A stretch of 5,474 bases of DNA from a virus. Lineage: Duplodnaviria; Heunggongvirae; Uroviricota; Caudoviricetes. Each line of letters begins with the position of its first letter. Positions within the stretch are counted from its first letter, which is position 1. The stretch lies in the IMG/VR virus record IMGVR_UViG_2660238346_000015; one strand, given 5' to 3'. Of the stretch, positions 4,654 through 4,777 are shown piece by piece. Below the pieces are notes generated by a model. It was not told where the DNA came from, did not search any database, and worked only from the letters and a program-made list of their open reading frames with translations. The position numbers and the translations under genes were made by a program.

Positions 4654-4777
4654 ATGTTAACTGCTGCCTGGTTAACATTTGCTGAAAAAGCCAGTTAACA
4701 TTTTTTCCGCACAACAAACTGAATAATAAAGATAAAAACCGCAAAAATGCCCGGGCAGCCAGTTAACATGTTAACTG
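4654..4777. repeat. array of five GTTAAC-core 10-bp motifs (consensus CAGTTAACAT and its reverse complement), including an 18-bp perfect palindrome; candidate TerS-binding (cosB-like) or operator sites
   Basis: ATGTTAACTG at 4654-4663, TGGTTAACAT at 4669-4678, CAGTTAACAT at 4692-4701, and CAGTTAACATGTTAACTG at 4760-4777 (perfect palindrome, two overlapping half-sites). About one GTTAAC is expected by chance in a window this size. An A/T-rich spacer at 4702-4759 separates the third site from the palindrome. Confidence 0.7.

Follow-up and report, generated by a model that had tools for sequence, protein, structure and literature searches.

GTTAAC sites between the cos cut and terS of a Stx-type prophage: a candidate small-terminase recognition array

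What reads the five GTTAAC sites that lie between an HNH endonuclease gene and terS, the small-terminase (TerS) gene, in a fragment of tailed-phage DNA? The fragment is the 5,474-nucleotide stretch of Caudoviricetes DNA filed as IMG/VR record IMGVR_UViG_2660238346_000015 (the window, meaning that whole stretch), and a preliminary description had offered a cosB or an operator as candidate roles for the sites. The sequence comparisons reported here favor the first of these, with a probability of roughly 0.8: the cluster is read as the small-terminase recognition array of a phage cos site, functionally equivalent to cosB of lambda. This reading is preferred because the sites lie between terS and the cut mapped in a near-identical phage, 31 bp from a palindromic pair of the sites, as in lambda; because the architecture is conserved and all sites switch together with residues in or beside the TerS recognition helix; and because the helix-turn-helix (HTH) domain modeled at the N-terminus of TerS superposes on the DNA-binding domain of SF6 G1P. 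A cos-adjacent TerS array is a known kind of element, found here in a phage group that pairs an HK97-type large terminase (TerL) and an HNH protein with an SF6-type HTH TerS.

GTTAAC occurs five times in the window (at 4656, 4671, 4694, 4762 and 4770), and all copies fall within 4656–4775. The expectation from 200 shuffles is ~0.65, and none of the 200 reached five. The preliminary description had counted five copies of a 10-bp motif. Five cores are indeed present, but only four carry the full CAGTTAACAT, at 4654–4663 (minus), 4692–4701 (plus), 4760–4769 (plus) and 4768–4777 (minus); the fifth, at 4671, retains GTTAACATTT (the core plus ATTT), and its two 5′ flanking bases differ from those of the 10-mer. 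The reported perfect 18-bp palindrome at 4760–4777 is present as CAGTTAACATGTTAACTG, and the sites do occur in both orientations between the HNH and TerS genes. In addition, 4650–4661 and 4671–4682 are the perfectly matched arms of a 12-nt inverted repeat and stand 9 bp apart. Read along the minus strand, which carries all of the relevant genes, the region is laid out as follows.

4870–5235, minus strand: HNH endonuclease gene (Pfam HNH PF01844, E = 4.8e-7; annotated as such in BP-4795 and E. coli genomes), with its stop at 4870.
4853–4861, minus strand: poly-G run (nine C on the plus strand), 35–43 nt before the cohesive-end 10-mer.
4809–4818, minus strand: cos cleavage core CGCGCCCCCT, homologous to the 10-nt 3′ cohesive end of phage Lys8385Vzw.
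4778–4808 (31 bp), minus strand: conserved segment CTCACGCAGAGAAAAAATTCCCGTTTCAGGG between the cut and the palindrome.
4760–4777, no strand assigned: S1, the perfect 18-bp palindrome, whose two half-sites overlap at the central AT.
4705–4759 (~55 bp), minus strand: spacer with phased T-tracts; the S1–S2 distance is fixed and the sequence diverges.
4689–4704, minus strand: S2, a single half-site AAAATGTTAACTGGCT that is a direct repeat of the right half of S1 (13–16 nt repeated); its position is conserved.
4650–4682, no strand assigned: S3 and S4, the inverted pair GCAAATGTTAAC-caggcagca-GTTAACATTTGC (minus strand) with a 9-bp spacer.
4016–4579, minus strand: terS, small terminase (Pfam Terminase_2 PF03592, E = 1.3e-8; N-terminal HTH at residues 1–56), starting at 4579, 70 bp beyond S4.

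The same concentration of sites is seen in a complete genome, in a genome-wide count of the kind that the preliminary description had suggested. Lys8385Vzw, a 95% identical phage of 50,953 bp, has 17 copies of GTTAAC, five of them within its first 153 bp, and the remaining 12 are close to the compositional expectation of ~11.5. Of the six copies of the 8-mer GTTAACAT in that genome, five are inside the cluster. The Poisson probability of at least five sites in 124 bp is ~1e-9, or ~4e-7 genome-wide after correction for 410 windows. The repeats are thus locally over-represented as well as conserved, as in a cosB-type array. One extra exact CAGTTAACAT is located at 29321 of the Lys8385Vzw record, inside a hypothetical early-region coding sequence (28945–29493), and may be due to chance.

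The cos cut was placed in the window by homology to the published PhageTerm ends of Lys8385Vzw, which was classified as a cos phage with 3′ cohesive ends and with CGCCCCCCCT as the cos at its genome end (PMC7946995). The Lys8385Vzw record begins CTCACGCAGAGAAAAAATTCCCG and finishes ...GGACACCGCCCCCCCT. On the minus strand the window reads ...GGACACCGCGCCCCCT up to the cut and CTCACGCAGAG... beyond it, while Lys8385Vzw ends ...CGCCCCCCCT and restarts with CTCACGCAGAG, corresponding to window 4808 downwards; the homologous 10-mer is therefore 4818–4809, and the packaged left end runs from 4808. The packaged ends, on whose proximity the preliminary description had made its proposal depend, thus map by homology to 4808/4809. 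A further comparison comes from Burkholderia phage Bcep176, whose TerS is 37% identical to that of the window. At the terminus of its linear record, CGCACGTTCC is followed across the cut by CTCACGCG (also written CTCACGCGCAG); this terminus falls at the same homologous 10-mer and is independent support for the predicted cut position. Between the cut and the palindrome there are 31 bp, with the cut on the far side of the palindrome from terS and S1 at +32 to +49, and all five sites (4650–4777) lie between the cut and terS, the position expected of a cosB. Within the intervening 31 bp, CTCACGCxCAGAAAAAATTCCC is near-invariant among all relatives, including those of Burkholderia. The poly-G run comprises 7–9 G and keeps its position in all relatives, from Escherichia to Erwinia and Morganella and in a satellite described below, although close relatives differ in its length. 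The run may represent a cosQ-like element, an element read by TerL or HNH, or a slippage-prone tract.

Conservation of the array was assessed by retrieving loci that encode TerS proteins 65–89% identical to the window TerS and aligning their cos-to-terS regions. This alignment (A2) comprises nine full-length loci of one site class (A), three of a second (B) and one partial class-B locus (L086). The motif architecture that the preliminary description had suggested looking for upstream of terS is kept among these E. coli loci: the distance from the center of S1 to S2 is 68–70 bp in every one, despite divergence of the spacer between them, and some carry one additional direct copy. The 9-bp segment between S3 and S4 (4662–4670), which reads cAGGCAGCr on the minus strand, hardly varies in either class, with GGCAGC invariant in A2, though the arms on either side of it switch.

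The switch concerns every site. Class A has the core ATGTTAAC and includes the window, Lys8385Vzw and the loci of TerS proteins P0010, P0020, P0009 and P0038. In class B, which includes the loci of P0023, P0033 and P0005 plus locus L103, the core is ATGTTTAY at every site compared, such that S1 becomes the palindrome TATAAACATGTTTATA, S2 becomes AAATGTTTATACCC, and the S3/S4 pair becomes AAATGTTTACagggcagcgGTAAACATTT, with arms ATGTTTAC and GTAAACAT. Class B is rare, occurring in 11 of 5426 E. coli genomes. The TerS proteins differ in parallel: AGYS-x-KTARVKGS in class A corresponds to AGYS-x-KSARCKGS in class B (T32S and V35C, usually also A26E). Across five class-A and four class-B distinct TerS clusters, protein and site class matched without a discordant case. 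For instance, the P0005 TerS is 89% identical to the window TerS yet has S32/C35, and its locus has class-B sites, as the rule predicted. The two classes thus differ by only one or two bp per site and by two or three residues in or around the recognition helix. The concerted change of five dispersed copies is a stronger argument than the covariation with TerS.

An AlphaFold2 model bears out the earlier statement that the adjacent small terminase is an HTH protein. Residues 1–56 are modeled at a predicted local distance difference test score (pLDDT) >90, with helices at 4–14, 19–25, 33–41 and 44–56. Residue 35 lies in the first turn of the modeled recognition helix, the second helix of the HTH, and residue 32 lies just before it. 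Equivalent positions in HTH proteins generally face bases. The best PDB matches by Foldseek were to the SF6 G1P DNA-binding domain, namely 4zc3 (target template-modeling [TM] score 0.84, root-mean-square deviation 1.6 Å, 56 residues) and 2cmp (TM 0.81). Searches of PDB sequences with TerS and its family profile matched the Pam5, SF6 and PaP3/NV1 small terminases and not that of HK97. Against Pfam, TerS matched only Terminase_2 (PF03592), and the Phage_Nu1 family of gpNu1 was not matched. TerS is accordingly a Terminase_2 protein with an N-terminal HTH, as in SPP1 and SF6. The confidently modeled HTH, and PDB matches that lie elsewhere, do not fit an HK97-like TerS, which is without an HTH and reads a single site through its tunnel.

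Whether residues 32 and 35 amount to a general code is a separate matter. Beyond the E. coli clade a residue-to-base code was tried and rejected, since TerS proteins with S32/S35 or T32/S35 accompany mixed GTTTAY, GTTAAT and GTAAAC sites in distant genera; the correspondence is claimed within the E. coli clade only. A more ambitious proposal is advanced tentatively, at somewhat less than even odds: that the ATGTTAAC and ATGTTTAY arrays, together with TerS residues 32 and 35, make up a simple code, switched in nature, by which a small terminase of the SF6/SPP1 family recognizes its DNA, and define packaging-specificity groups among the many co-resident Stx-type prophages and their satellites, and that in most relatives the sites sit within the terS frame, where they would dictate odd VN/VY/KVT linker repeats.

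Those more distant relatives were found by scanning species-representative genomes with alignment A1; a scan with the single TerS protein gave no match. Full-length TerS relatives (33–49% identity) occur in Atlantibacter, Kluyvera, Phytobacter, Kosakonia, Enterobacter, Citrobacter, Serratia, Rouxiella, Erwinia, Pantoea, Buttiauxella, Morganella and Burkholderia. A cos core of ~110 bp recurs in nearly all of them, consisting of poly-G ... GGACACCGCGCCCCCT CTCACGCACAGAAAAAATTCCC ... GGAGGgtGTAAAC-ATGTTAAC, in which the ATG is the start codon of terS. In 13 or more genera a near-palindrome, GTAAACATGTTAAC or GTTAACGTGTTAAC (GTAAAC-ATG-TTAAC), overlaps this start ~39 nt past the cut, and codons 2 and 3 of terS are TTA ACA in 13 of 13 aligned genes. 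In the window lineage, terS starts 190 bp further on and reads GTGCTGAC, where no site is left, and the old Shine-Dalgarno sequence has decayed. The lineage nevertheless retains the cos-adjacent ATGTTAAC at the same distance from the cut, now within the perfect 18-bp palindrome. By this comparison, the ATG within S1 (4769–4767, minus strand) is a relic of the ancestral terS start codon. Retention of the palindrome after its coding role was lost indicates that selection acts on the DNA element and not on coding. As a side observation, this ATG opens only a 24-codon hydrophobic open reading frame (ORF; MLTGCPGIFAVFIFIIQFVVRKKC, 4695–4769) without a Shine-Dalgarno sequence, which is probably not expressed.

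Further sites lie inside terS in the distant relatives. One stretch, aat GTT TAy acc cca gcg GTA AAC, encodes N-V-Y-T-P-A-V-N; it is an inverted pair of the form ATGTTTAY-9 bp-GTAAAC and resembles the class-B S3/S4. At six positions of this pair, all aligned genes with the majority residue (11–13 of 13) use the same codon, whereas in the 3′ half of terS the commonest codon is mostly present in only ~40–70% of genes. Salmonella phage FSL SP-016, sequenced from virions, has this embedded layout. The linker motifs encoded by the embedded putative sites are NVYTPAVN, VNTP and EVNRGVNPEVNP, with invariant codons, at +204 to +227 of terS in loci L005–L020 and at +165 to +194 in Morganella morganii (L023). 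DNA-site constraints seem to shape the low-complexity linker of TerS in distant relatives.

Placement of the sites varies in other ways. In a Pantoea sp. (L021) and in M. morganii, terS starts ATGCTGAC as in the window and GTTAAC/GTTAAT repeats lie outside the gene, between the cut and terS in Pantoea, and in Morganella with several copies upstream of the poly-G, on the HNH side. It appears that the sites were rearranged more than once. In many distant relatives (L005–L015) an additional GTAAACAT half-site precedes the cut by ~30 nt, toward HNH at about −73 relative to the start of terS, so their cut has sites on both sides; at this position the window lineage has GTAAAAAACGATCG, which is not a site.

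A satellite provides a different view of which protein reads the repeats. P0064, a TerS homologue with 46% identity, is encoded in a ~9-kb integrative island of E. coli (L087–L089 and L105; GCA_012987925.1 and others) whose genes encode an integrase, a replication protein (AAA_25 or D5_N/DUF5906), a Terminase_2 TerS of its own and a capsid-like product; no terL or HNH gene is present nearby. The island has the poly-G and a GGACACCGCCCCCCGT CTCATTCGTAGAAAATTTT core, followed by AAAAGTTACAC twice as direct repeats, and a further five GTTACA/TGTAAC copies are located in the linker of its terS (as KVT repeats), for seven in total. A conserved cut core combined with TerS-specific repeats is what a division of labor between cosN and cosB predicts, and the comparison points to TerS as the reader of the repeats. 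The C-terminal region of the island TerS resembles that of window-type TerS, which suggests that window-type phages may be helpers of the island.

These data bear directly on the best-surviving alternative, that the sites are bound not by TerS but by a different protein of packaging (HNH or TerL) or of the host (a nucleoid protein). HNH and TerL must also act at cos, so the idea has some initial appeal. It is nonetheless improbable: covariation with the sites is seen at residues within or beside the recognition helix of TerS, and the satellite, which has a repeat motif of its own, carries no other packaging protein than its TerS. Moreover, the part of cos that is common to the satellite and to distant genera is the cut core, which fits TerL or HNH acting there and not at the variable repeats. 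As to host proteins, no IHF consensus (WATCAANNNNTTR, with up to one mismatch) was found among 14 sequences, which covered the window region and the spacers of relatives. A lambda-like bend assisted by IHF was rejected on the same result, and an intrinsic bend is proposed in its place. The spacer had been described as A/T-rich; it is only moderately so (59%), but its T-tracts are phased ~10 bp apart, with centers ~12, 22, 32, 38 and 50 bp from the palindrome center, and are kept in E. coli relatives. Such DNA is probably intrinsically bent.

Very improbable is the other role put forward in the preliminary description, that of operators at which a dimeric transcriptional regulator of late genes, or of terS itself, binds the palindromes. 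Dimeric HTH regulators do typically have palindromic and inverted sites, and in distant relatives the palindrome overlaps the ribosome-binding site and start codon of terS, where bound TerS could dampen its own expression. In the window, however, neither a sigma-70-like promoter on the minus (coding) strand nor a terminator was found, and the lone promoter-like hit, which lies on the plus strand, consists of the sites. The region is internal to the late operon, downstream of the lysis genes and ahead of the head genes. In the window lineage, the sites are 70–200 bp from the terS start, and it is from the cos cut, not from terS, that they keep a fixed distance.

It is less credible still that the inverted repeats act as RNA or single-stranded DNA hairpins (in attenuation, processing or translational control), with the class changes being compensatory. 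Both arms of S1 and of S3/S4 do change together in class B so that pairing is kept, and the 9-nt “loop” is invariant. The unpaired S2 switches as well, however, and all stems share one sequence, which pairing does not need; some relatives add a direct copy, and the satellite repeats are mostly direct. The RNA fold of 4640–4790 (minus strand) is no better than that of shuffled sequences (z = −1.42; 18 of 200 as good), and there was no Rfam match at E ≤ 1. Equally hard to credit is the idea that duplications of the terS 5′ end (ATG TTA AC...) left the repeats behind as relics without function, for although ATGTTAAC equals the start codon and two further codons in relatives and S2 repeats part of S1, the sites are invariant while their flanks diverge, all copies switched together in class B, the palindrome became perfect after its coding role was lost, and 1278 of 5426 complete E. 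coli genomes have the array.

If the cluster is a recognition array, its mode of action might be as follows. The HTH domains of an oligomeric Terminase_2-type TerS would bind the ATGTTAAC half-sites in S1 and in the distal S2–S4, and a bent spacer would let S1 and S2–S4 touch one TerS assembly. Bound TerS would then position TerL and HNH to nick 31–40 bp away, and would anchor the terminase on the end that enters the capsid first. We infer here TerS as the binding protein, the bend in the spacer, and the direction of packaging (along the minus strand, as in transcription).

Several points weigh against this account. The evidence that TerS binds the sites is indirect, from sequence comparison and a structural model. 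For the homologous TerS of SF6/SPP1, specific binding to DNA has proved difficult to show (PMC9611059), and the TerS of HK97 uses a quite different, tunnel-threading mechanism (PMC11331095). The sites are only ~150–330 bp from the HTH codons, and two haplotypes that were each inherited as a unit, perhaps after one switch, could account for the covariation. The spacings between half-site cores (8, 15, 23 and 68 bp) are out of simple helical phase, and the orientations differ between S1 and S3/S4, which misfits a rigid dimer model; such an arrangement would suit HTH domains flexibly tethered to a ring oligomer, as discussed for SF6 and PaP3 (PMC9611059). Synonymous conservation is high across the 5′ half of terS, and the signal at the intragenic pair of the distant relatives is not unique. 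Finally, the published cos coordinates contain a typographical inconsistency (50,977–50,953), and the Lys8385Vzw record is labeled circular.

Comparison with known packaging systems places the array between several of them. Lambda cosB (R3-I1-R2-R1), bound by gpNu1, likewise lies between the cut (cosN) and the small-terminase gene (Nu1), has several repeats in both orientations, and has a cut-near site separated from a distal group by a bending segment. Its reader is an HTH small terminase, as is proposed for TerS in the window phage. Lambda and phage 21 also show specificity variants paired with TerS variants. The differences are that gpNu1 belongs to Phage_Nu1 and the window TerS to Terminase_2 (SF6/SPP1-like), that the site sequences are unrelated, that lambda has the IHF site I1 where the window has phased T-tracts, and that lambda has a 12-nt 5′ end in contrast to a 10-nt 3′ end with an HNH partner here.

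The window shares with HK97 the order of HNH gene, cos, terS and terL, as well as a TerL of the same Pfam family (TerL_ATPase PF03354), as expected of an HK97-type, HNH-dependent cos module; by homology, the HNH gene product is the accessory nuclease of this type of packaging. The HK97 TerS site is at +15 to +29 from the cut (Chechik et al. 2024, PMC11331095), that is, on the same side and a few tens of bp downstream, as S1 is here. The HK97 TerS, however, has no defined HTH and reads a single 15-bp site through its central tunnel (PMC11331095), whereas the window TerS has an SF6-like HTH and faces five half-sites over ~128 bp. SF6 G1P is the closest solved homologue of the DNA-binding domain (target TM 0.81–0.84), and recognition in SPP1 and SF6 draws on several contact points on either side of the cut (PMC9611059). 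The sites of the window phage's distant relatives are inside terS, as pac sites often are. In contrast, SPP1 and SF6 are headful (pac) packagers, while the window family makes defined cohesive ends (PhageTerm, PMC7946995); and where specific HTH–DNA recognition has been hard to show for SF6 (PMC9611059), the sites here are sharply defined. The E. coli island is comparable to the TerS-S system of Staphylococcus aureus pathogenicity islands (SaPIs) and to phage-inducible chromosomal islands (PICIs), where a TerS encoded by the satellite redirects packaging, likewise having its own TerS and its own repeats with the same cos core, and it concerns a relative of the window phage.

No description of these sites, of the palindrome or of the extended cos string was found in the searchable literature; a paper on Chi hotspots and a preprint on cf-PICIs likewise say nothing about this cos site. 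The mechanism of small-terminase recognition was called “elusive and controversial” in a 2022 review (PMC9611059), and no clear pairing of a specific site with an HTH is available for the SF6/SPP1 family. The phage group described here offers sharply defined half-sites, two natural specificity classes and a mapped cut 31 bp away. The 341-bp region between HNH and terS is found in up to seven places per E. coli genome, often in several prophages, and the array is also present in Stx1-, Stx2a- and Stx2c-converting phages, which are medically relevant. The array probably governs which prophages, defective prophages and satellites are packaged by each terminase, and hence the mobilization of toxin genes.

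Taken as a whole, the window covers the packaging and head module of a lambdoid prophage of the BP-4795/Stx type. From position 185 on (5.3 kb), it is 94–98% identical to the module of Stx1a-, Stx2a- and Stx2c-converting lambdoid phages, including BP-4795 (Marienburgvirus), 2851, YYZ-2008 and JLK-2012. The gene order in BP-4795 is lysis genes, DUF3950, HNH, a 290-bp gap, terS, terL, capsid, portal and tail. Beyond terS, the window contains the following features.

2359–4019, minus strand: terL, an HK97-type large terminase gene, frameshifted, with Pfam TerL_ATPase and TerL_nuclease on two separate ORFs (4019–2592, 475 aa; 2556–2359, 65 aa).
358–2295, minus strand: ORF for a prohead protease–major capsid fusion.
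About 1–196: C-terminus of an IS66-family (ISCro1-like) transposase, adjoining a small ORF after the capsid gene.

The split in terL is due to a 1-nt deletion near 2602 (2590–2610), where the window has CCCCG-CCAGC and BP-4795 has CCCCGCCCAGC; it represents either a frameshifted pseudogene or a sequencing error within a C/G run. The portal and tail genes of BP-4795 are absent from the window, and this prophage copy appears truncated or interrupted. The array in the window is thus located in a decayed prophage, and with its terL frameshift and with IS66 by the capsid gene, this copy could act only in trans. A 100% identical E. coli match (H1) has an intact terL and is without IS66.

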